Assembly: GCA_002686365.1 (NCBI GenBank) | Contig: NZBZ01000018.1 | Coordinates: forward strand, 32,286-96,285 | Reading direction: 5' to 3' | Length of the DNA: 64,000 nucleotides | DNA from: a bacterium | GTDB taxonomy: Bacteria > Patescibacteriota > Minisyncoccia > UBA6257 > GWB1-50-10 | Shown here: piece after piece, positions 2,867-64,000 of the stretch | Layout of the letters: every line of letters begins with the position of its first letter | Numbering within the stretch: the stretch's first letter is position 1 | The notes under the pieces: model-generated | Databases searched by the model: none | Told to the model about the DNA's origin: nothing | What the model saw: only the letters and a program-made list of their open reading frames with translations | Made by a program: the position numbers and the translations under genes

Positions 2867-2924
2867 TGTGTTGGCACTTTATCACAAAACATGAAAAATA
2901 AAAATTGACTCTCTAAAATGCGGA

Positions 2925-2955
2925 AGAGGGCGCGACTCAAAAGTCGTTCGCCCTC
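2925..2955 (-). terminator. Intrinsic terminator after the primase-like gene (agagggcg...cgccctct stem, T-rich tail on the minus strand)
   Basis: An 8-bp GC-rich inverted repeat lies immediately 3' of the stop at 2957 and is followed on the minus strand by TTCCGCATTTTAG..TTTTTATTTTT. Confidence 0.55.
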
Positions 2956-2956
2956 T

Positions 2957-5671
2957 TTACGTACGCTGCTTCCAGCCTACCTCGGTCCACCACGTGTTGT
3001 AGTCGTCGTGGTCTCTGGCGTCCGGAAACGTGTCCAGGAATGCTGGCGTGAAGTCCTCGGCTTCACACTCTGCTTCCTTCAGGGTTTTGATGATTTTCTT
3101 CGTTGCTTTCCTGCCGGGCTCGTCGAAGTCAAGCGCGACGAAGATCTTCTTTCCGGCTCTCCCAGCTATCCCAATTGCATCAATCACAATGTTATTGTTG
3201 GTGCCGATAATTGCAATTGCGATTTTCCCGGGAAGAGCCTCCATGATGGTCAGCGCATCCATCACTCCCTCGCAGACGATAACTTCTTTGACCTTATCGT
3301 CGTTGAGCCGCCCTTCTCCAAACGCACCATTGGGGAAGCCGGTCCGAAGCTTCATATGCGCAAACCGTGTCTTCTTCTGACCTATCTCCCTTCCGTAGAA
3401 TCCAGTACGGAGTCCGCCCAATGTGAGCGGAAATGTTATGTATCCGTTGCGGCTCCATAGTGGGTTCCGAGGCAGAAGGAGACGCGTATTTCCTTCCTTG
3501 TCTTCTCCTTCCTTTCCAAGCTCCTTCAAAGTGAGCCCAAGTTCCTTCTGCAGCCTTCGGATAAATGGATTATCCGGCTGGACTGTCATGGATCGGGTTA
3601 TAACCCCGAATTGCTCGAGCTCTTCGAATTCGTGCCCCCTCTTCAGTAGGCCAAAGATGACTTCATCAGTCCAGAGTCCTGCTCCAAGATTCCATGCGAG
3701 TTCCGGATCCAGCCTGCGTACTTCTCGCAGGTAGTCTCCTCCTCGGCTTTTCCGGAATCCTCTTCGAAGGATTGTCTGGGCATCCCCCATAAGAACGCCC
3801 AGTTCTTCTGGAATGGCAACATCCTTAATGGACTTGGACGAAGCTTTAGTCCCTCTTTCTGCCCAGTTGCTTCGCACAACATCACGGATGTCGGAAAGCT
3901 CGGGCGGAATGCTCTCCTCTGCGATTACTCCATGCATCTCCCCGCATCCGTAGCAGTGAAAGTGTCCATCCTTGAGGTAGATGTGAAGCGAGGGAGTTCG
4001 TTCTCCGCCTCCTTCGTGACCCGTGTGGTTCGGGTTCATGCACTGGATCGATCCTCCAGTCCGCCAGTTGAACCCCTTGTTAATGGCTATGCGACTGTTC
4101 AGCATTGCCTCTCGAAGCGCTCCGATTTGCATTCGAAGCACTCTTTTACCTCGAACCATTGGTCCGAGTTCCACAATTCTTGTTTTCGGATCGATGAATT
4201 CACGAAAGTGCTCCGTAAGAAGAGCCACGGGCAAGGCAGAGCTCTTTCTCCATCCTTCTGCATGAGGAATATCAATCCTCATCTGCTCTGGCCTGCTTTC
4301 CTCCCAAGCCCTCTGTATTCCTCCATTTCTAACAAGACGATCGAGCGTGTGCTGTACTCTTCGCATTCTCGCCCACTGCCTTGCTCTGGACACACGTGGA
4401 GCAAACACCTCTCTCATATATACCTCTGCTTCTTCCATGGTGATGTGATGTATCATCTCACCATCCTGCAGAAGATATATAATTTCTCCACCTATCATAG
4501 GAGACGAGGAGAATGCCTTTTCAGGGCTTGCTATTCCGCGTGCTCTCCAATGACAAGCCAGTGTTGAGACCGCAAGATACCGCTTCATTTGACGCGCGTG
4601 GATTGCAAGCGGCTCCTTAATCACGTCGGACCGCTTTATTACCTTCCCCTTCGATCCTTCTGAAGGAAGGTTGTCTCCCACCGCGACCTTGAGGTCTAGG
4701 ATCCGCCCACTCACCTGTCTTCCGAGGCTCTTGCGCAGTCGATGCAGAATTGCATCTATGCTGTATTCCTTTAGCCCCCTAAGAGCTTTTAAGCACTCCT
4801 CTCTATTTTTGCCTCTTACCGGCTCTCTTTCCAGGAGTACCTGAAAGATGTCGGCTGGATGACGCCCTGCTCCAAACTCAAAGCCTGCAACAGGAATTTC
4901 AGTGAATACGAGAGATCCTTTCAACCCTTGTAGCGTCGCAGATGTTGGAAACCCTGCGCACGTACTGTATATTACCGCGCGTAGATATCTTCCAATTAGG
5001 TCCTCACCAAGAGACAGCCCTGAAATCCACTCTCCGACCTCTTGCGAAAGGAGGTCCCCTAGCTCAAACATGAGCCCTATGGATTTTGGGTATTTTTCTA
5101 CCCAGGCATTGTGATCTCTCAGCGGGGCATCTAATTCTCCGCGTATCTCTTCCACTCGCTCAAGAATGTTCTCAGGCACTCTCCGAACTACCGAGAAAAG
5201 TCTAGTATCTTCCTCGGCCTCAGCGTCTACATCTTCTTCTTCCACTCTCTCTGGCCACAGTATGAGCTCGCCCTGCCTACTTTCCTCTTCTAGGTCAAGG
5301 ACTCCCAGTACTGCTTCATGAACTCTCGTTCCGATGAGCCTCCATCTGTGTTCGTCCGGATCTCCATTGCTTCCGTTTACCGCGCTTCTTCTTTTCCTTG
5401 TGCCCACCTTTAAGTCTCCGGATGTCAGACTCGTCTCTGTGTCGGACCTCCTTACAATTGCATCTAGTTTCTGCAGTGCAAATCCAATGTCGGATCTTCC
5501 ATCCATTACGATCTGCAGATACTGGAGAAGGACCCCTTCCATATGGGCTTGTCCTGCCCAATCTCGGAATGTATGGGACAGTCCGCGTGTTTCCCGTATG
5601 GCTCGTTCAATCTGGGCTCCGGGCACAAACTCTATTCGACCCTGTTCACTCGCCATTTTGCGTATCACCAC
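2957..5671 (-). CDS. Large DnaG-like primase: N-terminal ~500 aa of unknown function + CHC2 zinc finger (HFHCYGCGEMHG) + primase core + TOPRIM (VIVCEGVMDAL...ALDFDEPG)
   Basis: The zinc-finger and TOPRIM motifs can be read in the translation. The gene is visibly GC-richer than its flanks and sits between its own terminator and an AT-rich intergenic region. Confidence 0.6.
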   Translation of the reverse strand: MVIRKMASEQGRIEFVPGAQIERAIRETRGLSHTFRDWAGQAHMEGVLLQYLQIVMDGRSDIGFALQKLDAIVRRSDTETSLTSGDLKVGTRKRRSAVNGSNGDPDEHRWRLIGTRVHEAVLGVLDLEEESRQGELILWPERVEEEDVDAEAEEDTRLFSVVRRVPENILERVEEIRGELDAPLRDHNAWVEKYPKSIGLMFELGDLLSQEVGEWISGLSLGEDLIGRYLRAVIYSTCAGFPTSATLQGLKGSLVFTEIPVAGFEFGAGRHPADIFQVLLEREPVRGKNREECLKALRGLKEYSIDAILHRLRKSLGRQVSGRILDLKVAVGDNLPSEGSKGKVIKRSDVIKEPLAIHARQMKRYLAVSTLACHWRARGIASPEKAFSSSPMIGGEIIYLLQDGEMIHHITMEEAEVYMREVFAPRVSRARQWARMRRVQHTLDRLVRNGGIQRAWEESRPEQMRIDIPHAEGWRKSSALPVALLTEHFREFIDPKTRIVELGPMVRGKRVLRMQIGALREAMLNSRIAINKGFNWRTGGSIQCMNPNHTGHEGGGERTPSLHIYLKDGHFHCYGCGEMHGVIAEESIPPELSDIRDVVRSNWAERGTKASSKSIKDVAIPEELGVLMGDAQTILRRGFRKSRGGDYLREVRRLDPELAWNLGAGLWTDEVIFGLLKRGHEFEELEQFGVITRSMTVQPDNPFIRRLQKELGLTLKELGKEGEDKEGNTRLLLPRNPLWSRNGYITFPLTLGGLRTGFYGREIGQKKTRFAHMKLRTGFPNGAFGEGRLNDDKVKEVIVCEGVMDALTIMEALPGKIAIAIIGTNNNIVIDAIGIAGRAGKKIFVALDFDEPGRKATKKIIKTLKEAECEAEDFTPAFLDTFPDARDHDDYNTWWTEVGWKQRT

Positions 5672-5779
5672 CCTTCTTTGGCTTTTTCTGTGATTTTCGG
5701 TTTTGGTTTTCCTCTGGTCCTATGCTACTTGAAGGAGCCCTTTTGGGTAAAGGGAAAAACTGTGGACAGCAAAAAAGGG

Positions 5780-7141
5780 CTATTTGACCTTCTTTTTTAA
5801 TAAGGACTCAAAAATACGAGCTCTCACCTCCCCTACGAGATAAAAGGAGCCGGTTACGATTATTATGTCATCTCCTTTGAATTCTTTTATTGCTAGATCA
5901 AGCGCTTCTTCCGGACTTCTTACTATTCTCCGTTCTACTTTTGAAACCTTCTTCATTTTTAGTGAGAGGCTTCTTGCAGACTTACTTTTTTTCTTGCCAA
6001 AGTCAGTTGTGGAAAGGAATTGCGAGAAGTATATCTTTCTTGTAATTGGAGCAATCTTTCGCATTGTTCCGGTCTGATTCTTTCCCTTCTTGATTGCAAA
6101 TATAAAGGTGAACTTCTTTTTTGGAAACAGCTTCTTAATTGTTTGCACAAATGACTCCATCTTCTTAGGATTGTGCGCGCCATCTAAAATAATTGTCTTA
6201 TTTCCATGCAAAGTTTTAATATTGAACGCTTCAATCCTTCCGGGAATTCGAACTTCCCTTAATGCTTTCCTAATAGTTTCTTTTGATACTTTTAGTTTTG
6301 ATTTTTCAAGCGCAGTAATTGCTGTTGCAATATTTACTGCCTGATACTCTCCTAAGAGCGGAGTTTTTAGATTTAGATACGTTTCTTTTTTTGTCTTTAC
6401 GTTTAAGAGAAGTCCTTCTGGACCTAACTTTTTCAGCTTTGTCTGCACATCTCTTCCCATGATTGTAAGAGGCGCCTTTTCCTTTTTTGCTTTCTTTTTT
6501 ATTACTTCCAGCGCGTCTTTTTGTGTTGCTCCTGTTACTACTGGAACTCCCTCTTTAATAATTCCTGCCTTGTTTCGAGCAATCGCCCCCACTGTCCAGC
6601 CAAGAATATTCCGATGGTCAAAATGGATATTTGTAATGACTGAGACAAGGGGGGTTATCACGTTTGTCGCGTCAAGCTTTCCGCCAAGGCCCACTTCTAT
6701 TGCTGCAACATCAACCTTCTTTCTTCGAAAGTGTTCGAATGCTATGGCAACAACTGCCTCAAAGTATGTTGGCAATCCATCAGTTTCTCTTCCTGTTTTT
6801 TCTATTTTTGGCTTTGCCCATTCAACAAGCTCTGTAAGGTCTTTATCGCTTATCTCTTTTCCATTCACCTGTATTCGTTCGTTTACTCTGTTTATGTGAG
6901 GAGAGATATGCAGTCCTGCTTTATATCCCGCCTTTTTCAGGATTCCAGCTGTGATGTAAGTAATTGACCCCTTACCTGCTGTTCCTCCAATATGGATAGA
7001 CTTGAATGACTCATGGGGATTTCCCATGAGTTCTAAAAGATGCGCTACTCGCTCGAGCTTATACAATCTCTTCCCTGTATTTTTATTTGGGATGAGAGAT
7101 TCCAAATATTCAACTGCCCTCTTGTAGGAGGTTATACGCAT
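5780..7141 (-). CDS. folC: Folylpolyglutamate synthase / dihydrofolate synthase (Mur ligase family) with K-rich C-terminal tail
   Basis: The P-loop IHIGGTAGKGS and the Mur-ligase domain order are present. Confidence 0.8.
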   Translation of the reverse strand: MRITSYKRAVEYLESLIPNKNTGKRLYKLERVAHLLELMGNPHESFKSIHIGGTAGKGSITYITAGILKKAGYKAGLHISPHINRVNERIQVNGKEISDKDLTELVEWAKPKIEKTGRETDGLPTYFEAVVAIAFEHFRRKKVDVAAIEVGLGGKLDATNVITPLVSVITNIHFDHRNILGWTVGAIARNKAGIIKEGVPVVTGATQKDALEVIKKKAKKEKAPLTIMGRDVQTKLKKLGPEGLLLNVKTKKETYLNLKTPLLGEYQAVNIATAITALEKSKLKVSKETIRKALREVRIPGRIEAFNIKTLHGNKTIILDGAHNPKKMESFVQTIKKLFPKKKFTFIFAIKKGKNQTGTMRKIAPITRKIYFSQFLSTTDFGKKKSKSARSLSLKMKKVSKVERRIVRSPEEALDLAIKEFKGDDIIIVTGSFYLVGEVRARIFESLLKKKVK

Positions 7142-17099: not shown

Positions 17100-17102
17100 A
17101 AA

Positions 17103-21616: not shown

Positions 21617-21729
21617 TAAGATAGCAATATTGTACTTTGTTTATTGGGGATGATACTATTTTTATAGAGTTTGGGGGCGTCTTCCCGAATCTCTTCTTTC
21701 TTTGAGTCGAATGTGCAAGGGGCAAGGAC

Positions 21730-49714: not shown

Positions 49715-49811
49715 CTCACGTCTTCTTTTGACTATGTTTCTAGAAATAAAAAAGCACCCGCGGTTTGTTCCTTGGGTGCTGTGCGTACGGCGGATTGGTA
49801 CGTTCTTTGTC

Positions 49812-50264: not shown

Positions 50265-50300
50265 GATGACGCCAAACGTCCTTGTTGCGTCTTTGCCCCC

Positions 50301-50684
50301 CTATTCTATGTAGACTTCGTACCGCGTGAGGATGCATGAGGCAAGAGTGCAGACCGCAGCAAGTCCAGCTGCTGCCTTTCCGTGCACTCCTCCTACCATG
50401 TAGGCGCCCACTATGCTGTTGGATGCGGTAAAGAGAATGACGATAATCCACCCATACCCTGTTGCAATTGGGCGTAGCGGCGCCTTCCTGCCAAATGGGT
50501 TTGGACTTCCAAGCCGAGTCCCGAAAAACAATGCAACACTTGCCACGAGGGCGAAGTTCACGATTATGGCTGAATCTGAATCCCACTCGAAGATGAGTTC
50601 GCTTGCAAGAGCGCCAAACGCTCCTACTACGACTCCTGCTGCTGTTGCAATGAAGACGCCGACCACAACATCTATGGCCTTCAT
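50301..50684 (-). CDS. GC-rich hypothetical membrane protein, distantly similar to 49812..50264
   Basis: ORF with TM helices, inside a GC-rich island. Confidence 0.4.
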   Translation of the reverse strand: MKAIDVVVGVFIATAAGVVVGAFGALASELIFEWDSDSAIIVNFALVASVALFFGTRLGSPNPFGRKAPLRPIATGYGWIIVILFTASNSIVGAYMVGGVHGKAAAGLAAVCTLASCILTRYEVYIE

Positions 50685-50729
50685 GAGCTTCCCTTTCCGA
50701 AGTCGGTGATGCTGATGACGTCCTCTTGT

Positions 50730-50957
50730 CTACAGAGGCCAGATCTCACTGGGCATAGCCACGCCGTGAGTAACCTGCCGCGTTCCTGTTCCATCACAGG
50801 CTTCACATTTCTTTGTCTTGTCTGGGCCTGCGGGCAGCTCACAAAGCAGTGCCCACCTTAACCGTTCTCCTCGACTTAGTTTCCCCTCGGGCACTCTTTC
50901 TCTTCCCTTACACTCATCGCACCCTGCTGTCTCAAGATACTCCATGCCTTCTATCAT
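50730..50957 (-). CDS. Small DnaJ-type zinc-finger protein (CDECKGRE...CEACDGTG)
   Basis: Two CxxCxGxG repeats; GGAGGAAG lies 6 nt before the ATG; the conserved island promoter lies upstream. Confidence 0.45.
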   Translation of the reverse strand: MIEGMEYLETAGCDECKGRERVPEGKLSRGERLRWALLCELPAGPDKTKKCEACDGTGTRQVTHGVAMPSEIWPL

Positions 50958-51009
50958 GTTTCTTCCTCCATATCCTACAGATCAGTACGGACCGCGACAC
51001 GCTTGCTAC

Positions 51010-51042
51010 TATTTTTTATACCCCCCTCCTTTAAAAAGTCAA
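51010..51042 (-). promoter_or_regulatory. Conserved island promoter (minus strand: TTGACT-N17-TATAAAAAAT preceded by G-run)
   Basis: Read directly; a variant of the 40709 and 41920 promoter blocks. Confidence 0.5.
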
Positions 51043-51097
51043 TTCGCCCCCACACCCATGCATGGGCGTGGGGGTTTAACGGCTACGCAGGACGCGT
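51037..51097. repeat. Two adjacent hairpins: cccccacaccc-atgcat-gggcgtggggg and aacGGCTACGCaggacGCGTAGCCgtt; the second is a copy of the 22114 motif
   Basis: Read directly; located at the right edge of a GC-rich island. Confidence 0.45.
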
Positions 51098-51112
51098 AGC
51101 CGTTAAAGTACT

Positions 51113-51415
51113 CTATTTTAGGCGGTAGTGGACGTATCTACCTTTTTCTCCAACTTGAACTATCTTTCTCTCCTTCTCCAGCTCCTGAAGATACTTTGTT
51201 GCTGTAGAATCTGCCACTCCCAAAAGCCACTCAACATCATTGTTGGTTATCTCCTTCTTAGTTTTAAACATGCCGAGGATCTGCTCTTTTCGTTTATCTT
51301 TTTCCCGTCTTTGTAAAAGTATGTTCTTTGGCAGATGCTCGCGCTTCCAAAGCTTGTATGCTCCTACTGTAATTACTATTCCAATAACGATTCCTAGTAA
51401 CAGTGTTGGGGTCAT
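51113..51415 (-). CDS. Small protein with N-terminal TM and C-terminal winged-helix-like region
   Basis: TM segment plus ..VEWLLGVADSTATKYLQELEKERKIVQVGEKGRYVHYRL (HTH-like). Confidence 0.35.
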   Translation of the reverse strand: MTPTLLLGIVIGIVITVGAYKLWKREHLPKNILLQRREKDKRKEQILGMFKTKKEITNNDVEWLLGVADSTATKYLQELEKERKIVQVGEKGRYVHYRLK

Positions 51416-51419: not shown

Positions 51420-52451
51420 CTATGTTCCGAAAAAGTGATTTATAGCAAGTCCTATTAGGAAGCTCAAAAATGCAACTCCCAAGCTTATTGCTGCCATCTC
51501 AAGGAATCGCTTTTTAAAGGAAAGATTTCGCGCAACTGATGTGTAAAAGGTGAATACAAGAATAATGAGAATTGCTATTGCAAGTGTTACTGCTAGCGCG
51601 ATAAATGGGTTTTTGAAGATGAAGTACGGGATGATTAAGAGGAGAACGGTAATGATGTAGGAAATGCCAGTTACAACTCCTGCTCGTAGAGCTTTTTTTC
51701 TATTCCCCTCTTCCTTTGTGGATAAATATTCAGAAGCAGCCATTGAAAGAGAGGCAGCAATGCCTGTGATAAATCCTACGATTGCGATAAGGCGAGTGTC
51801 TTGAAGGGCAAGCGTGAGACCTGCTATGGCGCCAGTAAGCTCAACAAGTGCGTCATTTAAACCCAAGACCACAGAGCCTATGAGCTGAAGCTTATGGTCG
51901 CTTATCATATTCAGAATCTTTTCCTCATGCTTCTGTTCGTCCCTAATAATCTTTGCTACTTCAGGATGTGTTTTTTTGAGTCTTTTATATGCCTCCACTG
52001 CCAATCTCTCTCCCTGCTCCATGAGGCGGAGGCCAAAATTGATTCCAAGAATTCTGCTTATCCAGTAGTGTGCCTCCCCTTTTATCTTTGAGGGCCTTAT
52101 GCTTTTGCCTGTTACCTTTTTCCAGATTTCATAATGATTCTTTTCCTGATCGGCGATTTTCTCCAGAACCTCCTGGTCTGCCTTATGCGGAACTACACGA
52201 GCAAGCCTGCGATACACCTTGTACTCGGTTATTTCATTGCGCTGGATTTTTATAATGCGGGCAAGCTCTGCCCTGTCTATTTTTTCAGGCATATTAAAAT
52301 TATGCCCTATTGTACGCATGGAGGCAAAAACATTGACTTCTTTTAGATATTCTTGTAGATTCTGGACAGTTGATCCGACAACCCGACCGGGCGGAACCCG
52401 GAATGATCGCATACCTCCGAAGGAGGAGCTACGATGTCGGCTCATGTTCAC
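51420..52451 (-). CDS. MbfA-like iron exporter: N-terminal erythrin/ferritin-like domain fused to a VIT1/CCC1 membrane domain (true start possibly at 52319 or 52292)
   Basis: Ferritin-like E..H pairs (EKNHYEIW, RDEQKHEE), followed by LGLNDALVELTGAIAG, which is typical of the VIT1 family. Confidence 0.6.
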   Translation of the reverse strand: MNMSRHRSSSFGGMRSFRVPPGRVVGSTVQNLQEYLKEVNVFASMRTIGHNFNMPEKIDRAELARIIKIQRNEITEYKVYRRLARVVPHKADQEVLEKIADQEKNHYEIWKKVTGKSIRPSKIKGEAHYWISRILGINFGLRLMEQGERLAVEAYKRLKKTHPEVAKIIRDEQKHEEKILNMISDHKLQLIGSVVLGLNDALVELTGAIAGLTLALQDTRLIAIVGFITGIAASLSMAASEYLSTKEEGNRKKALRAGVVTGISYIITVLLLIIPYFIFKNPFIALAVTLAIAILIILVFTFYTSVARNLSFKKRFLEMAAISLGVAFLSFLIGLAINHFFGT

Positions 52452-53069
52452 GCACTTCAGCTTGTGAGGCTTTACGCGCCTCAGATCTGGTGGCTATACA
52501 ATGACCCTGGAAGCGGCGAGCTTCCGTTCGGCACGCACAGCGCATTCCTTACATCGCCGGGCATGCACTGGTCTAAGGGAGCCATCTGTGGTGGTTCTCT
52601 GACGCTCGCTTTTCCTCACGGCGATCGAGCCGTCTCGCGTCCGGTTCATGTCGTGTGTTCCGGGTGTGAGTTCTGCTTCACCATTTCTACTCGTGGCGTC
52701 ACAGACGCCCTGGAAGAGTGGATGAGGATCGTTGTTGGTGCTGCAATCCAGCAACTTCGCGATAAGCCTCGATTCTCCGAGTCGACCTCGGTCTTCGATG
52801 CCGAACTTCACATCTGTCGTCCAGCATCCATTCTCGTGGATCTCGAGGACGATTCGTCTCCTCGTTCCTGTCCAACGTGGAGAGACTTCGGCTTCGCAAT
52901 CTCGGAGATCGTTTCTCCTCCCAATGGGGAAGCCCTCGAGGATCTCCTCATCTCTGCTGTGTATCTCATGGGACACCTTGAGCGCACCTTTCAGGGTGCT
53001 GCGAAAAGGGCTTCCGGGCACATCTGCTCTGCCTCCGAAGCGTTCCACCCAGAGTCACGCCGCGAGTAG
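52434..53069 (+). CDS. GC-rich hypothetical Cys-containing protein; a competing minus-strand ORF 52494..53048 exists
   Basis: GGAGGAG lies 6 nt upstream of the ATG on the + strand, which favours this strand; no family recognised. Confidence 0.3.
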   Translation: MSAHVHALQLVRLYAPQIWWLYNDPGSGELPFGTHSAFLTSPGMHWSKGAICGGSLTLAFPHGDRAVSRPVHVVCSGCEFCFTISTRGVTDALEEWMRIVVGAAIQQLRDKPRFSESTSVFDAELHICRPASILVDLEDDSSPRSCPTWRDFGFAISEIVSPPNGEALEDLLISAVYLMGHLERTFQGAAKRASGHICSASEAFHPESRRE

Positions 53070-53179
53070 GTCTGATTTCAGCCCACTCGTCGCGCACAAC
53101 GCCCTCGATATTTGTTCGAGGGCCTTTCTTTTGTCGAATTACCCTATCTCACATAAGAAGACAAAAAAAGGACGCTGTA

Positions 53180-53521
53180 TTAGAGCATCCATTTGGCAGC
53201 ATCTTCTTTGACTTCTTCTGGTGGGTCAACGTGGGCAGATCCGTAAAGTTCCACCTTGCAGCGCGGACAGTCAAGCTCCAAGTCCCACTCCCATGGCCAG
53301 GCTGGTCTTCCTTCTCCCTTTGCTCGTGCTCCTTCTCGTTCGTAGGTGGGTCTAGGGAGAAGTTTCCAGATCTTCCTTCCTCCTGGAGATCTCACATCAA
53401 ATCCGCGATAGCAGACGCGGCATGTGACGCCTACTGGAGATGTGTTTTCCGAATCCTGCCCGCCCTTGACTGTTGCGTCTACGACTATTCTTTTTTCAAT
53501 CTTTACGCACATGAACCTCAC
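53180..53521 (-). CDS. GC-rich hypothetical protein with CxxC...CxxC zinc-ribbon-like pairs
   Basis: CRVCYRG...CPRCKVE pairs. Confidence 0.35.
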   Translation of the reverse strand: MRFMCVKIEKRIVVDATVKGGQDSENTSPVGVTCRVCYRGFDVRSPGGRKIWKLLPRPTYEREGARAKGEGRPAWPWEWDLELDCPRCKVELYGSAHVDPPEEVKEDAAKWML

Positions 53522-53593
53522 GCTTTCTTTCCTGTTCCTGTGATCGTACTAGTCAAGAATTATGCCTTATTATTTGCTAGAAGGCAAAATCAA

Positions 53594-53615
53594 ACAGCCC
53601 CGCTAAAGCGGGGTT
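53594..53615. terminator. Hairpin ccccgctaaagcgggg with T-rich flanks (bidirectional terminator); the same hairpin type occurs at 60104..60127
   Basis: Read directly. Confidence 0.55.
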
Positions 53616-53627
53616 CTTTGATATATT

Positions 53628-54029
53628 TTATTTTTTCAGGAGCTCACACTCACTTGCATCAGCTAGGCGCTCGAGACCCTGCTTCCCCACTAATTTTGTT
53701 CCATCAGCAAGTACCCAAGTGGGCGTACTTTCTATATTTGCCTCTGCGCACCTCTCTGGCTCTTTATCGCACTCGATATAGTTTATGTACTGAAAAGCGC
53801 TTTTGAATTCTGCTTTTTCAGCCCTGCAGTAAGAACAGCTGTCTGTGCCGTACATTACAATTCCTTTATCAGTAATACACTGTGCAAATTCATCAAGATT
53901 TTCATATGGAGATGATCTCCACTGATTGTAGGAAAGTGCAGCAATTATCATTACAACCACTACTGCTCCTCCGCCGTAGAGAATAAGTTTATTTTTCATT
54001 TGTTTTAAGTATTTTACTCGTCGCAGCAA
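53628..54029 (-). CDS. Secreted thioredoxin-fold protein (CSYC), paralog of 60697..61101
   Basis: Signal/TM segment, the YGTDSCSYC active site and ..TPTWVL.. are present. Confidence 0.6.
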   Translation of the reverse strand: MLRRVKYLKQMKNKLILYGGGAVVVVMIIAALSYNQWRSSPYENLDEFAQCITDKGIVMYGTDSCSYCRAEKAEFKSAFQYINYIECDKEPERCAEANIESTPTWVLADGTKLVGKQGLERLADASECELLKK

Positions 54030-57315: not shown

Positions 57316-58053
57316 TTATTCTGTAAATAGAGTTCCCACAATAAATACTATTGCAATGCCTGCGATAATAGTAAGGATATGCTCAAATCCGTTTCCTTTT
57401 TCTTTATGCCGTACTTCTGGGATAAGGTCAGAAGCAGAGATATATATGAAGGCGCCGGCAGTAAATGCCAAGATAAGGCCTATCCATGGCTCAATATAAG
57501 AAAGAAGAAAGTATCCGGCAAGAGCTCCTACAGGTGTTGTAAGCGCTGTTAATAGGTTATATAAGAATACTTTTCCTTTTGCGTATCCGCTGTGCAGGAG
57601 AACTCCGAAATCCCCTATCTCCTGCGGGACCTCGTGAAAGAAGACAGCAATGGTTGTTGCAATACCCACTGGTACGCTTACTGAAAATGCTACTGCTATT
57701 ACAATGCCGTCTAGAAGATTATGAATTCCGTCTCCAATAAGGACAGTGCCTGATAATATGTGCGCCTCACACTCTTCCTGGTCATGACAGTGATGCCATC
57801 TTAAAAACTTCTCAACAAGGAAGAGAACAAGTATTCCTACTACTGCTGCTATGAATGCCTGGTTCTGCGGCGCTTTTTCTATTGCCCCTGGAAGAAGGTC
57901 AAAAAAGGCAGCACCCAGTAGTGCGCCTGCGGCAAAGCTCACTAGGAAAAGAGATATCTTCCTAATCCAAGTTTCTTTGTAGAGCAAAATTACACCTCCA
58001 ATAAGGGCCGCGACACTTCCAATAAGACTTGCGATTATTATCTGCAGAAGCAT
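57316..58053 (-). CDS. ZIP family metal transporter (ZupT-like)
   Basis: HEVPQEIGDFGVLL and HH..H motifs; 8 TM segments. Confidence 0.8.
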   Translation of the reverse strand: MLLQIIIASLIGSVAALIGGVILLYKETWIRKISLFLVSFAAGALLGAAFFDLLPGAIEKAPQNQAFIAAVVGILVLFLVEKFLRWHHCHDQEECEAHILSGTVLIGDGIHNLLDGIVIAVAFSVSVPVGIATTIAVFFHEVPQEIGDFGVLLHSGYAKGKVFLYNLLTALTTPVGALAGYFLLSYIEPWIGLILAFTAGAFIYISASDLIPEVRHKEKGNGFEHILTIIAGIAIVFIVGTLFTE

Positions 58054-58153
58054 GGCTTTATCTTATCACTGTTTCTTTTTTAGGCAACTTTTTAGCAATA
58101 AAAAAGACGGTTGAACGACTCTTCCGTCTTTTGCGCATTGGCGAGGTTCGGCG

Positions 58154-59182
58154 TTAGACAATCTCTACGCCGCGTTCCCCCTGGACGATCTCTCCTATAA
58201 CTATGGGTGTTTCATTATGTATTTGGAGCAGTTCGAGGGCTTGGTCCTGGTCTTCTCTTTCTATGGCCAGCACCATGCCGATTCCCATGTTGAAGACGCG
58301 GAACATTTCCCTATCCTCAACGCCTCCCGCCTTCTGGATGTGCGCGAAGATAGGAAGTGCGTCCCAGGTTTCTCTGCGGATCACGGCACGGCATGCCTCA
58401 GGCAGGATGCGTCGGATGTTGTCCGGAAGTCCTCCGCCTGTGATGTGGGCGATTCCCCGTATCACGACCTTCCCCTGAAGCATCTGAATGGCTTTCAAGT
58501 AAGATCTGTGAGGCTTGGAGAGTTCTTCGCCCACTGAAATTCCTAGACCAGGAATTTCACTTCCCACAGACAGGCCCTCTATCTCGAAGATTACCTTCCG
58601 TGCTAGGGAGTAGCCGTTCGTGTGGATACCGACTGATGGGAAGCCAATGACGACGTTGCCTGGTTGTATGCCTTCCCCTGTGATGAGGCAAGAGCGTCCC
58701 ACCATACCTATCATGCAGCCAACGAGGTCGTATGCGTCCCCTTGGTATGTATCGGGCATCTGGGCAGTTTCGCCGCCTATGATTGGAATCGTTAAGCATC
58801 CAATCTCTCTACACGTATCCGCCATTCCTCTTGTCAGGCCCTCGGCCATCTCGACGGATAGCGTTCCTGACCCCACGTAGTCTAAGAAGAAGAGCGGGCT
58901 TGCCCCTTGGCAGATGGTGTCGTTTCCACAGTGCCTAACGATGTCTCCTCCGACAGTGTGATGTGGGGCTACTTTCGCTTTCGTTCCTACCCCATCAATG
59001 GTCGCGGTAAGTACCTGATCTGGAAATTGCTCAGGAACGAAGAGCGCTGCGAATGTTCCGGTCTTACTCACTACCCCGGGTCCGTAGGTTGACTCTAGGA
59101 GAGGTCTCATTCTTTCAAGCGCCACATCTGCTTCCCCTATGTCAACTCCGGCGTCAGCGTACGTCAGCGGATCCCTTCTCAT
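58154..59182 (-). CDS. purM: Phosphoribosylformylglycinamidine cyclo-ligase (AIR synthetase); GC-rich
   Basis: LTYADAGVDI..., the GG.TAQMP motif and ~340 aa in length. The start was set to MRRDPLTY, which has GGAAGGA upstream. Confidence 0.8.
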   Translation of the reverse strand: MRRDPLTYADAGVDIGEADVALERMRPLLESTYGPGVVSKTGTFAALFVPEQFPDQVLTATIDGVGTKAKVAPHHTVGGDIVRHCGNDTICQGASPLFFLDYVGSGTLSVEMAEGLTRGMADTCREIGCLTIPIIGGETAQMPDTYQGDAYDLVGCMIGMVGRSCLITGEGIQPGNVVIGFPSVGIHTNGYSLARKVIFEIEGLSVGSEIPGLGISVGEELSKPHRSYLKAIQMLQGKVVIRGIAHITGGGLPDNIRRILPEACRAVIRRETWDALPIFAHIQKAGGVEDREMFRVFNMGIGMVLAIEREDQDQALELLQIHNETPIVIGEIVQGERGVEIV

Positions 59183-59299
59183 TTCTCGTCCTTCCGAGTT
59201 CACTTCCCCAGATTGGCCTGGAGATCTATCGCAACTATACTTGTCCTTTTTCCTTTTTTCAACTTTTTGTATTTTGTGTGGATAACTTTTGAGTTATGG

Positions 59300-59625
59300 A
59301 AAGATTTTCGTGGTATTCTGAATATAGATATGTTCTTTATCCGCTAGCCCCGACGACACACGGCGGAGGCGTGTATGATTGGACCTGCTTGCGCTGCTCG
59401 GCAACCTCGTTCCTCGACTCGACAGGACCCAGGAAGGAGGGCGTCTTCCAACTCGTCTTGCTGCTCTTCTCTTCCCAATAACCGTCGCCTCTGCAATGAC
59501 TTGCGGCGCAGAGCGCCCAAGTTCCCTCCTTCTCGATAGTCCCATACAGAAGGGAGGTGGTCCAATCTTTTCGGGCGGCGTGTACGAAAGGGGCAGGCTC
59601 ACGTCTGCCTCGCTTTTTCCTTCAC
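59300..59625 (+). ncRNA. GC-rich ~320 nt non-coding segment ending in a strong + strand terminator (ggcaggc-tcacgt-ctgcc + tcgcttttt); candidate structured RNA or decayed gene
   Basis: It has no convincing ORF, only overlapping short frames on both strands. It contains a GACAGGACCCAGGAAGGAGGGCG tract and ends in a terminator. Confidence 0.25.
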
Positions 59626-59751
59626 TTGATTTTATTTTTAATAGAGCTATACTTTTCTAACGTAAAAGTAGATTCGTAATCAAAATTGGTTTTTAGGCCG
59701 TTTTGCTTCGGGTCGAATAAAAGGTCAATTTAGTTTAGTTCACAAAGCAAA

Positions 59752-60084
59752 ATGGCAGATGAAGATACAGGCGGCGGATTCCAAAGGCAGATGTACCAAG
59801 GTAACTGGACCTGCTCTGGATGTGGAAACGCCATCACTGAACTTCCTTTTGAGCCGGATCCATCTCGTGCTGACAGCTTGCTCTGTCGAGAATGTCACCA
59901 ACAAAAGCGTGATTCTCGAGGAGGGGGCGGCGGAGGCGGAGGATTTGGACGAAAGATGTTTCAGGGAAATTGGAAGTGCTCAGGTTGTGGAGGCGATATT
60001 ACAGAGCTTCCATTTGAACCTGATCCATCCCGGCTTGAGAACTTGAAGTGTAGAGATTGCTTCAAGAAAGAGAAGGGATACTAG
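59752..60084 (+). CDS. Tandem-duplicated CxxC-x17-CxxC zinc-ribbon protein with a poly-Gly linker
   Basis: Two ~40-aa repeats MYQGNWTCSGCGNAITELPFEPDPSR..LCRECHQ / MFQGNWKCSGCGGDITELPFEPDPSR..LKCRDCF. Confidence 0.6.
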   Translation: MADEDTGGGFQRQMYQGNWTCSGCGNAITELPFEPDPSRADSLLCRECHQQKRDSRGGGGGGGGFGRKMFQGNWKCSGCGGDITELPFEPDPSRLENLKCRDCFKKEKGY

Positions 60085-60103
60085 ATTCACAATCTATGAA
60101 AAC

Positions 60104-60133
60104 ACCCCCGCTAAGGCGGGGGCGTTTTTTAAT
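60104..60133 (+). terminator. Intrinsic terminator (cccccgc-taag-gcggggg + T6)
   Basis: Read directly. Confidence 0.75.
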
Positions 60134-60145
60134 ATAAATTACTTA

Positions 60146-60700
60146 TCATTCACTAGGCATACTTTCTTGTTTTGATAGCCCAGCAAAAGACGAGAGCGCG
60201 ATAAAGAGTAGGATAGAGAAGGACATCATGGGAATTGTAATATAACCATACTGCAGAGTGAACTGCTTTGTGCATGATGCGGCAGATCCTTCTGCCGAGC
60301 ATGGAAGAAGACTAGTGTGGGAGATTTGTCCGTAGTATTGGAAAAGAGCAATTGCGCCTCCAATTATAGAAAGTGTAATCACATATGGAATTATGCCTCT
60401 ATCTCGTTTTATGAGAGCCACTAGGAAGAGGATAACTTGCGGATATATAAGAATCCTTTGATACCAGCAGAGGACGCATGGTTCGTACCCGGCAAATTCT
60501 GAATAGAAAAGACTTCCCAGAGTTGCTCCCAGAGAAACGAGAAATCCGATCCAAAGCGCGTTTTTCCCTATCGTATCTTTATATGCGCCTAACATTCTCC
60601 CCTTTGAAATGAGCGAGACAATTAGTCCCAGCGACGCGAGTTGGACAAGGATGGTAAGCGCTCCTAGTAAAGAGTCTGCACTTGAGACAAGTGAATTCAT
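60146..60700 (-). CDS. Vitamin K epoxide reductase (VKOR) family protein
   Basis: CVLCWYQR CxxC in a TM helix plus loop cysteines (PCSAEGSAASC). Confidence 0.75.
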   Translation of the reverse strand: MNSLVSSADSLLGALTILVQLASLGLIVSLISKGRMLGAYKDTIGKNALWIGFLVSLGATLGSLFYSEFAGYEPCVLCWYQRILIYPQVILFLVALIKRDRGIIPYVITLSIIGGAIALFQYYGQISHTSLLPCSAEGSAASCTKQFTLQYGYITIPMMSFSILLFIALSSFAGLSKQESMPSE

Positions 60701-61101
60701 AGGTTTTCTGATTGCGTGTACTTCTCCGGCAGTTCACAGCCGGTTTTTTCTGCGAGAAATCGAACATCCTGAACTCCTGTTACACGCTCTCCATCTGAAA
60801 ACTCCCATGTTGGATAGGCCTCTATGTCCGCCTCATTACACTCGGCAGCCTGCTGATTCTGAGCTCCACGAACACCGCATTCCACATATTCCAGATGTTT
60901 TTTTGAATTGCCGAACATCTGATTTTGATTTTGACAGTTAGGGCACCAGTATGCTCCGTAATAAGTTACATCCTCATCTTTCAAACACTGTGCAAACGCG
61001 TCAAGTTTTCCTGGAAGAAATCGCTGGCCGACAAGGAGCCCTACGATAACAAGAAAAGCAATAATAAGAAGTCCTGGGGTACTAAAGATTTTTCTTTTCA
61101 T
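60697..61101 (-). CDS. Secreted thioredoxin-fold protein (CPNC), probable VKOR partner
   Basis: YGAYWCPNCQ and ..YPTWEF..; translationally coupled to VKOR through a 4-nt overlap. Confidence 0.65.
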   Translation of the reverse strand: MKRKIFSTPGLLIIAFLVIVGLLVGQRFLPGKLDAFAQCLKDEDVTYYGAYWCPNCQNQNQMFGNSKKHLEYVECGVRGAQNQQAAECNEADIEAYPTWEFSDGERVTGVQDVRFLAEKTGCELPEKYTQSENL

Positions 61102-61102
61102 A

Positions 61103-61894
61103 TTAGATGAACGCGGCCCCTATCATGATGAGACCGAATATTAATATAAAATATCCTAAATTTACTTTTCGCGCGAGTGTTAAAAGTATATGTATTGTAA
61201 CTATTCCAAAAAGAAATGAAAAGAGGAGTCCAACGAAAAGCTCCAGTGACCATACAAAACTTTTTATATTCAAAATAATGTTTCCCGCAAGAACAATCGG
61301 CAGAGACATGAGAAAGCTTAAGCGGAGAGCGTCTGTGTCGTTTATTTTTCTAAGAAGGAGAGCTCCAATGGTAAGTCCTGATCTGGAGAGTCCGGGGAGC
61401 ACTGCAATGCCTTGGGCAATACCTAGCGCTATACTGTCTTTCCAGTTTATTTCTTCTACCTTCCTGTGAGCCTCCTCTTTTCTTTTTATCTGCAAAGCTG
61501 CTGTTCCAATAAGGAGGAGTCCTATTGCTCCGGTTATGACTTTTCCAGAAAGCTCTATCTGTTCTCCCAGCTGTATTAAAAGTTTCAAGAGCCCAAATCC
61601 AAGAATTCCGCTTATGATGGTGGATATGACGAGGAATTTTAATGTTACTCTATCTTTTTCCTCTGCGCTCTTATATGAGAAGAACGTTTTTATAAGAGTA
61701 ATAACATCTTTTCTTAGATAGATGAGTGCTGCGAGAAAGGTTCCAAGATGCAGAAAGAGCGCGAGTTCTATGATGTCTTCTATTCCGGTCTTCTTAAATA
61801 TATTTATCTCTGCAAGCGCAATAAGCCCCTCCGAACTTACGGGGAGCCACTCTGCAATACCTTGGATTGCTCCGAGTACTACTTCTTCAATCAT
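61103..61894 (-). CDS. uppP: Undecaprenyl-diphosphate phosphatase
   Basis: AIQGIAEWLPVSSEG and the GLSRSG motif are present. Confidence 0.85.
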   Translation of the reverse strand: MIEEVVLGAIQGIAEWLPVSSEGLIALAEINIFKKTGIEDIIELALFLHLGTFLAALIYLRKDVITLIKTFFSYKSAEEKDRVTLKFLVISTIISGILGFGLLKLLIQLGEQIELSGKVITGAIGLLLIGTAALQIKRKEEAHRKVEEINWKDSIALGIAQGIAVLPGLSRSGLTIGALLLRKINDTDALRLSFLMSLPIVLAGNIILNIKSFVWSLELFVGLLFSFLFGIVTIHILLTLARKVNLGYFILIFGLIMIGAAFI

Positions 61895-63213
61895 AGAAGC
61901 GCATTTTGCGGAGTTAGCTCTTCCCGTTCTTTTTCATTAAAGATTTTGATTGTGCCGAATTCTCCATCATAGCCTGCGGCAATATGAATCTTCCCTTTTC
62001 GCATTCTATCTACTGCTTCTTTCACCATTGGTCCAACTGATTTTTCTATTTCTTCTAAAGGAACGTCAAGAAGAATTGAAAATTCATCTCCAAGATCTTC
62101 TAGCATTTTCATATAGATTCCCTCCACCTTCTTACTTCCTGCTCCTACATTTTCTACCTCTGAAATAACTTCTGGTAAGGGGACGATGCTTTTGAAGGGA
62201 CGTACTTCTTCAGGCTTCTGTCCTTCTTCTCGATTTGCTATGTCCTCTACCCTATGCATGACACCTACAGTTACTCGGCGGCTGCACTTTGTACATAGAA
62301 AGTCATTCTTCTTTGTATCTTTTGGCTCCATGCGGGTTTCACAATTTCTGTGTCCGTCTAAATGATACTTTCCTTCCTCTGGGTAGAATTCAATGGTCGA
62401 CTCAAATGCCTTAGTGTCGTTTTCTTTGAGCGCGCGGGTTATTGCCGCATATGAAAGATCCGTATTAAAAACATTTGCCTCTCTTCCCAGCTTGCCTGGT
62501 GAGTGTGCGTCTGAATTTGAAATTATGGCGCGGCCATCGAGCTCTTTAATTCTCCAGTTCATTGAAGGATCACTTGATAGTCCTGTTTCTACCGCATATA
62601 TCTGCGGAGTAAGTTCTTCAAAGCATTCTTCAAGCGTGTCAAAGCCGGATTGGGAGCCAAACACGGAAAAGTGCGGAGTCCAAATATGCGCGGGTATGAA
62701 CATGCACTCTTCGGACACGCCTAATACTATCTTCATGAGCTCTTTTGTATCCAGTCCTAAAATTGGCCGACCATCAGACTTAATATTCCCGATAATTCCA
62801 AGCTCTGCATTTATTTTCTCTACAACTTCTAAAGACGGAGCAAGAACCAGGCTGTGAACCTTACGAGTCTTGTCGTTTTTCTTGTAGATTGTGCTTATTT
62901 CAGAAGTTAAGATAAAGCGAATTGGAGCTTTACACTTTTCTGGTACATCCTTCTGAATATCTTTTTCGAGTTCTGGCTTTAGTTTATACAAACCCGGCTC
63001 TGCAGGCTCAAGCCTTTCCTGAAGTTCCTTAAACCACTCTGGGTGCGTAAAATCCCCTGTTCCTACTACTTGTATGCCTTTTAACTGAGACCACTTAGTT
63101 AAGGAGATGATGTTCATCTCTTTTGACGTGGCCCTTGAGTACTTAGAATGTATATGGAAATCTGCGATGTATTTCATAAAGGTATGATAGCATGATTCGA
63201 CTTTACTAAACAA
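61891..63213 (-). CDS. PHP-domain protein with C-terminal zinc-binding region, EndoQ-like (TIGR00375 family)
   Basis: N-terminal ADFHIHSKYSRATS (PHP His cluster) and a C-terminal NCETR...CTKCSRR; ~440 aa. Confidence 0.45.
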   Translation of the reverse strand: MFSKVESCYHTFMKYIADFHIHSKYSRATSKEMNIISLTKWSQLKGIQVVGTGDFTHPEWFKELQERLEPAEPGLYKLKPELEKDIQKDVPEKCKAPIRFILTSEISTIYKKNDKTRKVHSLVLAPSLEVVEKINAELGIIGNIKSDGRPILGLDTKELMKIVLGVSEECMFIPAHIWTPHFSVFGSQSGFDTLEECFEELTPQIYAVETGLSSDPSMNWRIKELDGRAIISNSDAHSPGKLGREANVFNTDLSYAAITRALKENDTKAFESTIEFYPEEGKYHLDGHRNCETRMEPKDTKKNDFLCTKCSRRVTVGVMHRVEDIANREEGQKPEEVRPFKSIVPLPEVISEVENVGAGSKKVEGIYMKMLEDLGDEFSILLDVPLEEIEKSVGPMVKEAVDRMRKGKIHIAAGYDGEFGTIKIFNEKEREELTPQNALL

Positions 63214-63253
63214 AAAGACCCGCGGACTTGTCCGAAGGCCTTTTTAATAACTA

Positions 63254-63590
63254 ATATATTTTCTATTGGAATAACTTTTTAATTCCTCCTGCTATTGCAG
63301 AGAATAGGTCGGTAAAGTTGGCAAAAAGTTTTCCTACTCCTTGCGGCTCTCCAAAAGCCAAAGATGGGTTGCTATATCTTTGCAAAACCTCAGAAGAATC
63401 CATAGAGCGATTGTAGATCTTAAGATTATCTATGTCAGTGTCAATTGCTGAATCTCCAATTATTATATCAACTGTTGGTATTTTTGCTGATCCAGCATAA
63501 TCAGTGCGTACAGTTGTATCAAGCGCATGGAAAAGAGTTCCATCAAGATAGTATGAGGCTCCTGTTGCATATTTGCTCTCCAGGAGAACC
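63254..63590 (-). pseudogene. 5'-truncated gene fragment encoding the C-terminal part of a LamG/concanavalin-A-like domain (..IDNLKIYNRSMDSSEV..); the open frame begins right at the AT/GC composition break ~63590 and has no start codon
   Basis: A frame of ~110 codons is open from the TAG at ~63590 to the stop at 63254. It contains the LamG-type IxxxRIYNRALS motif, and the sequence upstream of 63590 is GC-rich and unrelated. Confidence 0.45.
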
Positions 63591-63616
63591 TAGGGAGGGA
63601 CGAGAATGGTCGAGCG

Positions 63617-64000
63617 TGTGCTCCTTCTTATTGGATGGTTCGTAGTGATCAGTACGGTCGGTTACATGCTGATCGCGCTTGACAAACTTCGGGTCCAATA
63701 CAACAACGGGGGGCAGAGAATTCCTCATGCTCGTTTTAACCGGCTAGCTCTTTTGGGGGCTTGGCCGGGTATCCTTGTGGCGATGCACATATATCACCAC
63801 AAGACTAGAAGAAGTGGATTCCAGGCGGGGCTCGCGACATCTGTCATCGCGAATCTCTGTTTCGTTCTCGCGCTCCTTGTTAGTCCCCTTTTCGACTTCA
63901 GGATGCCCAGCGCACTGATGTTCGAGATAGACCTTGGCGGGACTTTCCCCGGAGCCGCATGGAGGTTGACTCCTTTAGGTGTTCTGGTGATTTTAGGGAT
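63617..64000 (+). CDS. DUF1294 family membrane protein, 3'-partial (runs off the window); GC-rich
   Basis: GGAGGG lies 6 nt upstream of the ATG. The motif NRLALLGAWPGILVAMHIYHHKTRRSGF matches the DUF1294 pattern (L..LA..GGWPGA..A...FRHKT.K..F). Confidence 0.55.

Follow-up and report, generated by a model that had tools for sequence, protein, structure and literature searches.

Gene-sized GC-rich patches scattered through an AT-rich scaffold of marine Patescibacteria

The DNA analysed here is a stretch of 64,000 nucleotides (the window; contig NZBZ01000018.1, positions 32,286 to 96,285) of the Tara Oceans metagenome scaffold TARA_SAMEA2619974_METAG-scaffold_103, which is 105,426 bp long and in whose record a position is 73299 minus that in the window, and it consists of an AT-rich background interrupted by eight or more small GC-rich patches, which we call islands. 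The window codes for a sigma-70 factor, enolase, PGI, an enzyme of the PPDK type, a class II ribonucleotide reductase (RNR), ThyX, CTP synthase and glutamate dehydrogenase, and the genes for FtsZ, FtsA and histidyl-tRNA synthetase lie just past its end. A SAM riboswitch at 23917-24027 precedes metK, a DUF5671 protein is encoded as well, and the homologues of the background genes are 60-81% identical and labelled Wolfebacteria, Paceibacterota or Patescibacteria. Core genes, riboswitch, Patescibacteria-labelled homologues and the DUF5671 protein therefore indicate that the window comes from the chromosome of a marine member of the Patescibacteria (Candidate Phyla Radiation, CPR) that resembles Paceibacteria or Wolfebacteria. 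The cluster entry of one protein, named TARA_037_MES_0.1-0.22, suggests the 0.1-0.22 µm size fraction as origin. No tRNA gene was found in the 64 kb.

An earlier reading of the sequence (the original prediction) had proposed, by eye, at least nine GC-rich segments on a background of about 35-40% GC. A two-state hidden Markov model (HMM) on GC, blind to the coordinates of these segments, called islands at 2920-5673, 21673-23161, 38634-39951, 40342-41854, 49754-51102, 52375-53485, 58106-59613 and from 63575 to the end of the window, the last one running on to 64545 on the contig. Two further patches, 24130-24400 (51.3% GC) and 37997-38110 (54.4% GC), are below the size limit of the model and are GC-rich by direct computation. 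The whole window has 43.2% GC, the nine proposed segments pooled have 51.0% and the remainder has 41.2%. The GC-rich islands are thus confirmed, with a background that, at about 41%, is richer in GC than had been estimated. Some boundaries had to be corrected. The island starting at 21673 stops at about 22745 and not at 23161, which excludes the 3' end of metK; the segment 38600-42200 is made of two islands, which are split by the AT-rich 5' quarter of a gene with an HD domain; and the segment 58100-60135 ends near 59613, since 59752-60084 is a native gene. A mosaic reading of the GC-raised 3' end of metK was rejected, since its GC3 (GC content at third codon positions) is barely up (0.40-0.48) and amino-acid content is the main cause. 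In all, the patches come in pieces of 0.3-2.7 kb and cover about 17-20% of the 64 kb.

The contrast goes beyond plain base composition. GC3 is 0.55 in the islands and 0.38 elsewhere, lysine makes up 3.2% of the residues encoded in islands compared with 8.5% in the background, and arginine 8.1% compared with 4.7%. The relative synonymous codon usage of islands and background correlates at only 0.45, and the correlation of their GC-normalised tetranucleotide frequencies is 0.76, whereas size-matched subsets of the background reach 0.955 +/- 0.01 and never fall below 0.914. A deviation in codon and tetranucleotide usage, which had been named as a check on the islands, is thus found in GC3, in lysine and arginine content and in tetranucleotide usage alike. 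Hypermutation of A to G and T to C as source of the GC shift was ruled out, because C- and G-ending codons are both up in four-fold degenerate families. Measured in 1-kb windows, GC has a standard deviation of 0.040 and a maximum that exceeds the median by 0.11, which corresponds to about the 90th percentile among 66 control loci. The heterogeneity of the window is high, but not unique.

GC-rich relatives of the organism exist, and with a scaffold assembled from a metagenome, reads of a GC-richer related population could have been stitched into AT-rich sequence during assembly or binning. However, a contig from a different run and a different assembler (L047; run ERR594345, MEGAHIT k127) is 100% identical to the window over 57993-64000, and this stretch spans two islands (those carrying PurM and DUF1294), four junctions and a scar in a LamG-like gene. 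Moreover, records of 105-kb contigs from three samples, with sizes of 105,426 and 105,676 bp, list proteins from all over the window, and the record of 105,676 bp suggests a separate assembly that contains the same PurM and ATP-grasp proteins. The junctions lie in intergenic DNA or leave readable scars, and two populations with a GC gap of 10 points would share almost no long exact k-mers. The junctions of the two islands covered by the independent assembly are thus reproduced, and we consider a stitching artefact extremely improbable.

The islands differ in cargo and in organisation. Island 1 (2920-5673, minus strand; 51.6% GC within the HMM borders) is occupied by an 899-aa primase-like gene with Zn-ribbon and Toprim (2957-5656), the called gene being five codons shorter than the longest open reading frame (ORF; GTG start), and by a GC-rich terminator hairpin at about 2920-2955. 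Island 2 (21673-22745, plus strand) contains two ORFans, 21730-21996 (88 aa) and 22277-22687 (136 aa), with no family match in Pfam, NCBIfam or PHROG, together with a palindrome at 22110-22139 and a bidirectional terminator at about 22717-22750. A mini-island (24130-24400, plus strand), flanked by the SAM riboswitch of metK and the PGI gene, consists of a small ORF for a single-pass membrane protein (24150-24314) and a terminator hairpin. A GC-rich relic at 37998-38110 (plus strand) comprises the last 25 codons (EIACPVGAERLYGVYCEECYNSEIV and the stop codon) of a second copy of a Cys-rich gene and a GC-rich terminator. Island 3 (38634-39951, minus strand) covers about 430 codons at the 3' end of the HD-domain gene 38653-40224, the part of the gene that is GC-rich. 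It is followed by island 4 (40342-41854, minus strand), in which small membrane-protein cassettes stand in tandem, with ORFs at 41656-41871, 41179-41604, 40821-41111 and 40403-40663, near-identical terminators at 41116-41137, 40775-40796 and 40342-40363, and duplicated promoters at about 41916-41951 and 40710-40745.

Island 5 (49754-51102, minus strand) is a single cassette with a promoter TTGACT-N16-TATAAAAAAT at about 51010-51040, a Zn-ribbon ORF (50730-50957) and two membrane-protein ORFs (50301-50684 and 49812-50264); a terminator lies at about 49755-49790 and a palindrome at the upstream edge (51075-51104). Island 6 (52375-53485) carries a convergent pair, an ORFan of 211 aa (52434-53069, plus strand) and a Zn-ribbon ORF of 110 aa (53180-53512, minus strand), and is bracketed by copies of a promoter-like segment of about 36 nt, TTGCCT-17-CATAAT, at 52299-52335 and 53559-53595, a duplication that is only suggestive. 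Island 7 (58106-59613, minus strand) contains the PurM gene (58154-59182) and an ORFan of 102 aa upstream of it (59294-59602). Island 8 (63575-64000, up to 64545 on the contig, plus strand) carries a DUF1294 gene, which begins at 63607 and has its own ribosome-binding site, and abuts the LamG-like fragment. The public gene calls of the scaffold pick plus-strand ORFs within islands (53231-53806 and 41123-41644). These calls are probably wrong and due to the long spurious ORFs that GC-rich DNA gives rise to, because the minus-strand Zn-ribbon ORF (53180-53512) and the membrane-protein ORFs match the promoters and terminators better.

According to the original prediction, the islands share a promoter and terminator vocabulary of their own. 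The promoters it named are visible in the sequence, and all motifs it listed occur at the positions given for them: the terminator GGGGCGCACATCCACGCGCTCC three times (40342, 40775 and 41116), the hairpin GGCTACGCAG..GTAGCCGTTAAA at 22110 within island 2 and at 51078, and the hairpin CCCCGCTAARGCGGGG at 53598 and 60106, with a chance expectation of 0 for the terminator and for the last hairpin. The repeats are therefore real, but the claim of a vocabulary of their own is only partly right. The three identical terminators and two of the promoters are tandem duplicates inside island 4, and three of the hairpin copies are terminators of native genes. Those of the form CCCCGC-TAAR-GCGGGG belong to the thioredoxin-like gene 53628-54029 and to the Zn-finger/DsbB pair, and the palindrome 51075-51104 directly follows the native gene 51113-51415. 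Across the three units of island 4, a terminator block of about 35 nt is almost invariant, whereas the ORFs, as judged by eye, have only about 50-60% of their nucleotides in common. This suggests that the terminators are kept alike by constraint or gene conversion, or that the ORFs are under diversifying selection. Between 40328 and 41145 one terminator copy has two changes, by which its stem is extended to eight perfect pairs.

The background has a repeated element of its own. An intergenic module of about 100 nt occurs at 25369-25472, 26195-26292, 27811-27912, 31825-31927 and 46378-46475, with a compact copy at 17232-17259 on the minus strand, and has no match in Rfam. The module opens with GAATCCCTCACATAAC, a short way behind the stop codon of the preceding gene; a spacer of about 75 nt comes next, with a small hairpin and a promoter-like block that is conserved (..TACAGTCGAAAnCATnAAAATA..), and the module closes with GTTATGTGAGGGATG, from which the following gene takes its ribosome-binding site and start codon. 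Its 12-nt inverted arms could pair solely in read-through RNA and would then hide the ribosome-binding site. No copy of this module lies inside a GC-rich island. The islands hence lack the repeated module of the native DNA, yet they have no coherent private vocabulary. Furthermore, a 95-nt direct repeat with 91% identity and rich in CGAATAT/ATATTCG palindromes is present at 17102-17196 and 38407-38501, in both cases intergenic and by gene starts.

At some edges the islands have left traces in resident genes. On the minus strand at about 63250-63585, a LamG-like C-terminal reading frame of about 105 codons lacks a start codon and ends exactly at the GC-rich edge, which confirms the proposal that a LamG gene loses its 5' half where the DNA with the GC-rich DUF1294 gene starts. 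The HD gene is chimeric in composition. Its first approximately 91 codons (39952-40224) are background-like with a GC3 of 0.40, ranging from 0.32 to 0.48, and the rest has a GC3 of 0.58, ranging from 0.55 to 0.68, with the HMM boundary at 39951/39952; the gene probably starts with the ATG at 40224. That islands disrupt native genes, as had been put forward for the mosaic in general, therefore applies to one pseudogene fragment and one chimeric gene and is not a general feature.

A further trace lies directly 3' of the intact AT-rich Cys-rich gene (36236-37996, 586 aa), where the GC-rich copy of its tail is found at 37998-38075. The gene as called on the scaffold has no recorded Pfam family. 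The second copy of the tail is present as described in the original prediction, and its derivation from a donor with a homologue of the gene is one way to explain it; a lost neighbouring paralogue explains it equally well, as the family forms tandem arrays. A scan of metagenome contigs (80 loci, L058-L137) showed the family on many contigs that appear to be CPR, often in such arrays with 2-9 paralogues, and almost every copy shares the C-terminal end FETSYAPDRPEIVYCExCYxxEV before the stop codon. Because of this tandem organisation, the tail is most simply the remnant of a deleted GC-rich neighbouring paralogue. It is still readable, GC-rich and undecayed. With the GC-rich tail and the AT-rich LamG fragment, the window thus contains neutral relics of opposite composition. 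The same 80 loci contain no homologues of the HD gene or of island genes and show little synteny with the window. Three loci retrieved via the CPR Cys-rich protein have protein-coding GC patches that rise about 10-19 points over their own background, L104 (1341-4246, 7282-8175 and 12187-14689), L098 (16329-17621) and L118 (4055-5175), and none of these patches is matched in Rfam. Patches of gene size and raised GC may thus be widespread among AT-rich Patescibacteria.

The switch of composition within the HD gene also bears on the idea that selection by expression level or protein type has produced the islands, for example by exempting weakly expressed or membrane genes from a nitrogen-saving low GC content. 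Island genes are indeed mostly accessory and plausibly weakly expressed, and several of them encode membrane proteins. However, such selection is hard to reconcile with a change inside a single gene, with the AT-rich composition of the native membrane-protein genes for BacA, DsbB, VIT1 and Zip and with AT-rich intergenic DNA; moreover, a rise in GC3 of 0.17 along with the replacement of lysine by arginine far exceeds typical effects of expression. We regard this explanation as highly improbable.

How the contrast arose can be judged better from related genomes. Five syntenic relatives were retrieved, four of them (L051, L053, L056 and L057) through the background ATP-grasp gene and one (L050) through the primase-like gene, and all five are GC-richer than the background of the window, with 55.6% (L050), 51.2% (L051), 49.8% (L053), 48.8% (L056) and 48.3% GC (L057). 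GC-richer related lineages, which had been considered as possible donors, therefore exist. The ATP-grasp protein of the window is 81% identical to that of L056, 71% to that of L057, 68% to that of L053 and 66% to that of L051. Orthologues of background genes have a GC3 of 0.54-0.70 in L050, L051 and L053, compared with 0.30-0.47 in the window, with the exception of a 134-aa protein, whose orthologue in L053 has a GC3 of 0.41. Likewise, the overall GC3 of the relatives is 0.45-0.66 compared with 0.38 in the background here, and the GC3 of the islands (0.55) is near that of L051, L053 and L056 (0.57-0.59). Since every syntenic relative found has 48-56% GC, the background with its 41% is the derived state, and it is the islands that are relative-like in composition. 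Moreover, L056 has a GC3 of 0.59 despite its 81% identical ATP-grasp protein, which implies that a large compositional shift took place after the split from L056.

The gene order of the relatives further shows where the islands are located. Shared with L051 and L053 is the order MJ0043_C, BacA, the 134-aa gene, DsbB, the Zn-finger gene, a first variable slot, ATP-grasp and a 128-aa gene, continued by genes of 261 and 170 aa, a second variable slot, DoxX, a squalene-hopene-cyclase-like gene, DUF4430 and DUF6580. In the first slot, where the relatives carry a MacAB-type transporter, lies the PurM island, whereas the island with the 211-aa and Zn-ribbon ORFs and an island with ORFs of 75, 127 and 150 aa occupy the second slot, before DoxX. 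These three blocks are absent from the same slots in L051 and L053. Genes found in variable slots of the relatives encode the MacAB-type transporter, DUF1573, thioredoxin-like and HigB-like proteins. In contrast, two genes that adjoin islands are native. The Zn-finger gene 59752-60084 is one of them, being 64-68% identical and having the same place and orientation in the relatives, and so is the Zip gene, which is 74% identical to its L056 counterpart that adjoins the ATP-grasp gene as well.

The primase-like gene of island 1 is a case apart. Its protein has Toprim- and DnaG-like matches in Pfam, NCBIfam and PHROG. A word-indexed homologue search with this protein returned itself alone, and the family emerged from a full HMMER scan with about 240 homologues of roughly 900 aa; 101 proteins have E<1e-30, and most of these are 870-960 aa long and align over nearly their whole length. 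The members have a conserved N-terminal region of about 500 aa without Pfam match, in which D81, H113, E253, D269, K323 and H353 are invariant, followed by a CHC2 Zn-ribbon and Toprim, where C539, C568, C571, E796, D843 and D845 are invariant. Among ten hits that were looked up, three had named entries, all of them from Patescibacteria, Parcubacteria or Paceibacterota. The family appears to be specific to Patescibacteria, and it may be the CPR form of DnaG. The order Mur ligase, primase, (Pterin-4a), DUF192, Ham1, (343-aa gene) and M17 peptidase in L050 is that of the window at 545-7141, with flanking proteins 43-64% identical to their counterparts. By this shared order, the primase-like gene sits at its ancestral locus; the GC content of 55.6% in L050 holds for the contig throughout. 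The gene is therefore not inserted cargo, as which it had been listed. Lysine makes up 5.2% of the primase-like protein here and 4.7% in L050, whereas the neighbouring proteins here are more lysine-rich than their L050 orthologues.

PurM has a different affinity. It matches TIGR00878 with 330 bits. Its closest homologues share 50-56% identity with it, and those that carry a name come from non-CPR groups such as Poribacteria, Armatimonadetes and Kiritimatiellae. On L054 (60% GC), the sole contig with a homologue that was examined, purM is part of a complete pur operon, whereas the PurM gene of the window stands alone. The 102-aa ORF upstream of PurM was considered as a homologue of the 99-aa ORF upstream of purM on L054, but the two are not homologous. 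Best hits in a different clade, which would be anticipated for foreign islands, are thus seen for PurM among the named hits; the nearest homologue of the primase-like protein belongs to a syntenic CPR relative, and the ORFans have no hits.

Taken together, we favour the reading that the patches are horizontally acquired or replaced DNA from a GC-richer, mostly related gene pool, which entered after most of the AT shift, and we assign it a probability of about 0.6. It is favoured because of the sharp, gene-sized edges, the variability of the slots, the foreign affinities of PurM and the neutral relics of opposite composition, and because Patescibacteria are known to exchange genes mainly among themselves (PMC12455944). 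According to that work, islands and transfers make up to 13% of genome length in Patescibacteria, and 83% of the detected transfers are between Patescibacteria; donors are often unsampled, the cargo is biased to membrane, hypothetical and metabolic genes, and a competence-based uptake has been proposed (PMC12455944).

Direction, timing, integration mechanism and donor are what we infer here, and the course of events would be as follows. The genome of the lineage would have shifted strongly towards A+T, and the patches would have arrived later and so escaped the shift. Single genes or small cassettes would have been taken up from a GC-richer pool, mostly from other Patescibacteria, although at least one of them, PurM, would ultimately stem from outside the CPR, and would have been integrated by illegitimate or short-homology recombination. 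Most patches would have entered intergenic variable slots as self-contained units of promoter, gene and terminator, one would have replaced the resident primase-like gene in place, one would have fused with the resident HD gene and one would have severed the 5' half of the LamG gene, and a GC-rich paralogue beside the Cys-rich gene would later have been deleted, leaving its tail. Xenologous displacement and homology-facilitated illegitimate recombination offer parallels, namely an orthologue with foreign-like composition at a conserved locus in case of the primase-like gene, and a chimeric HD gene and duplicated or truncated gene ends at junctions. However, the likely donors have only about 70-74% nucleotide identity with the host, which is low for the homologous anchor needed in homology-facilitated illegitimate recombination.

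Several observations speak against acquisition. No donor was found for the primase-like gene or for the ORFans in the homologue searches; the nearest member of the primase-like family among 1.8 billion representative proteins is the one on L050, with 38% identity. Scans of IMG/VR for close relatives of the primase-like, HD, PurM, 211-aa and DUF1294 proteins returned a single distant PurM homologue of 34% identity, and matches in PHROG are restricted to generic primase families. Integrase or transposase families of Pfam do not occur among the called genes, and, apart from the duplicate of about 36 nt at island 6, there are no target-site duplications or att-like repeats beyond chance at the island edges. 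Furthermore, the edges of the primase-like island follow the ORF at its ancestral locus, and the roughly 70-74% nucleotide identity between the nearest relatives would make its replacement by homologous recombination difficult. The GC-normalised tetranucleotide signature of the islands correlates with that of the host background at 0.73, compared with 0.45-0.52 for L050, L051 and L053 and 0.70 for L057, which makes the host the most similar among the signatures compared (0.73 versus 0.41-0.70). The codons AGA and AGG account for 0.49 of the arginine codons in the islands, 0.51 in the background and 0.12-0.23 in L050, L051 and L053, and even in PurM the fraction is host-like (0.55, compared with 0.08 in L054). 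The preferences for glycine and alanine codons in the islands are also partly host-like and unlike those of the sampled GC-rich relatives. L056 has an AGA and AGG fraction of 0.39. Host-like arginine codons and signature fit very close sister donors or partial amelioration, and equally native genes outside the AT drift. Our confidence in acquisition is lowered by the absence of a donor, by the host-like arginine codons and by the signature that is closer to the host. Of the donors originally considered, a related GC-richer lineage is in line with the favoured reading, and no evidence was found for a mobile element or a high-GC host in this role.

These host-like features are just what would be expected if the patches were native genes that escaped the lineage-wide AT drift, or were locally restored from it, and so retain an ancestral composition of about 50% GC. 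A patchy regime of mutation and repair or GC-biased gene conversion at recombination-prone flexible loci could be the mechanism. Escape would account for the ancestral position of the primase-like gene with its best hit in the syntenic L050, for the island GC3 that matches that of L051, L053 and L056, for the host preferences in arginine, glycine and alanine codons along with the host-like signature, and for the failure to find either a donor or a mobility gene. On the other hand, most island genes are missing from the same slots in the relatives, the relatives of PurM are non-CPR, and neutral relics of opposite composition are found side by side. In addition, we know of no bacterial mechanism that spares sharp-edged, gene-sized patches of 1-3 kb from a mutational bias that has shifted GC3 by about 0.2 in all the rest, intergenic DNA included, and gene conversion in bacteria is reported to affect GC3 by only a few percent. 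We hold escape to be unlikely, and the stricter form of it, in which none of the islands is an import and all of them, the primase-like gene included, are native genes shielded from or repeatedly reset against a recent AT drift, to be about as unlikely. If true, this stricter form would represent a bacterial counterpart of recombination-driven GC islands, and it would explain both the codon dialect and signature of the host and the failure to find a donor.

Host-like codons would also result if the patches derived, as remnants or as cargo, from a mobile element that resides in the cell, for instance a phage or plasmid of CPR bacteria with 'moron'-like cassettes. Such an element would have co-evolved with its host and brought along the primase, the HD nuclease or hydrolase and the many small membrane and Zn-ribbon ORFans. 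The cassettes of promoter, gene and terminator, some of them opposed to their neighbours in orientation, are in line with this assumption, as are the ORFan-rich cargo, the similar composition and codon dialect of the different islands and the palindrome GGCTACGC..GCGTAGCCGTTAAA that is common to two of them. However, structural, integrase and terminase genes are missing, the islands are scattered among core genes, the five IMG/VR scans for close relatives and PHROG gave nothing beyond the distant PurM hit and generic primase families, and in relatives the members of the primase-like family have a chromosomal, syntenic location. Mobile elements are, moreover, usually AT-richer than their hosts and not GC-richer. 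Cassette anatomy, deviant GC and the opposed orientation of some units are also what the islands have in common with phage 'morons', but here they lie in a cellular chromosome (FtsZ/FtsA, enolase, PGI, RNR, CTP synthase, histidyl-tRNA synthetase), and no close viral homologues were found; a megablast of 15 kb against phage records yielded no match. Integron cassettes are similar in being small, promoter-poor or self-contained and bounded by imperfect palindromes, but neither intI nor a series of attI/attC sites nor an array is present here, the islands are dispersed, and the palindromes are intrinsic terminators of native genes or occur just twice. A mobile element as source appears rather doubtful to us. 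A reading of the patches as defence islands was dropped as well, since PADLOC gave only DnaG-like and dGTPase-like similarity.

Some properties of the surrounding genes deserve mention. The class II RNR (42219-45379) is 58-65% identical to proteins from DPANN archaea (Woesearchaeota, Nanoarchaeota) and from Paceibacterota alike (L004-L025), in which a CobA/BtuR-type adenosyltransferase gene usually follows, and some DPANN loci carry a PurM gene (42% identical) beside the RNR gene. This suggests an RNR module shared between CPR and DPANN. A scan of genome contigs with the RNR revealed relatives from DPANN archaea and Paceibacterota with at most 65% identity and no useful synteny.

Mosaicism by horizontal transfer is already documented as a phenomenon in CPR bacteria, and the islands described here resemble those catalogued in Patescibacteria in being gene-sized or small multi-gene patches of atypical composition in a streamlined genome. 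They differ in that eight or more very small patches are GC-richer than a host whose own AT-shifted composition is derived, and in that one of them is the conserved primase-like gene of the lineage at its ancestral locus. The window represents an assembly-verified case of dense patching, in which about one fifth of 64 kb in a streamlined CPR genome is affected. If acquisition is the right reading, this patching reaches even a conserved replication gene, by replacement in place, as well as one chimeric gene. The islands would then provide a built-in clock for the AT shift of the lineage, by which, together with sister genomes or population data, the drift could be dated and rates of amelioration in Patescibacteria could be determined.

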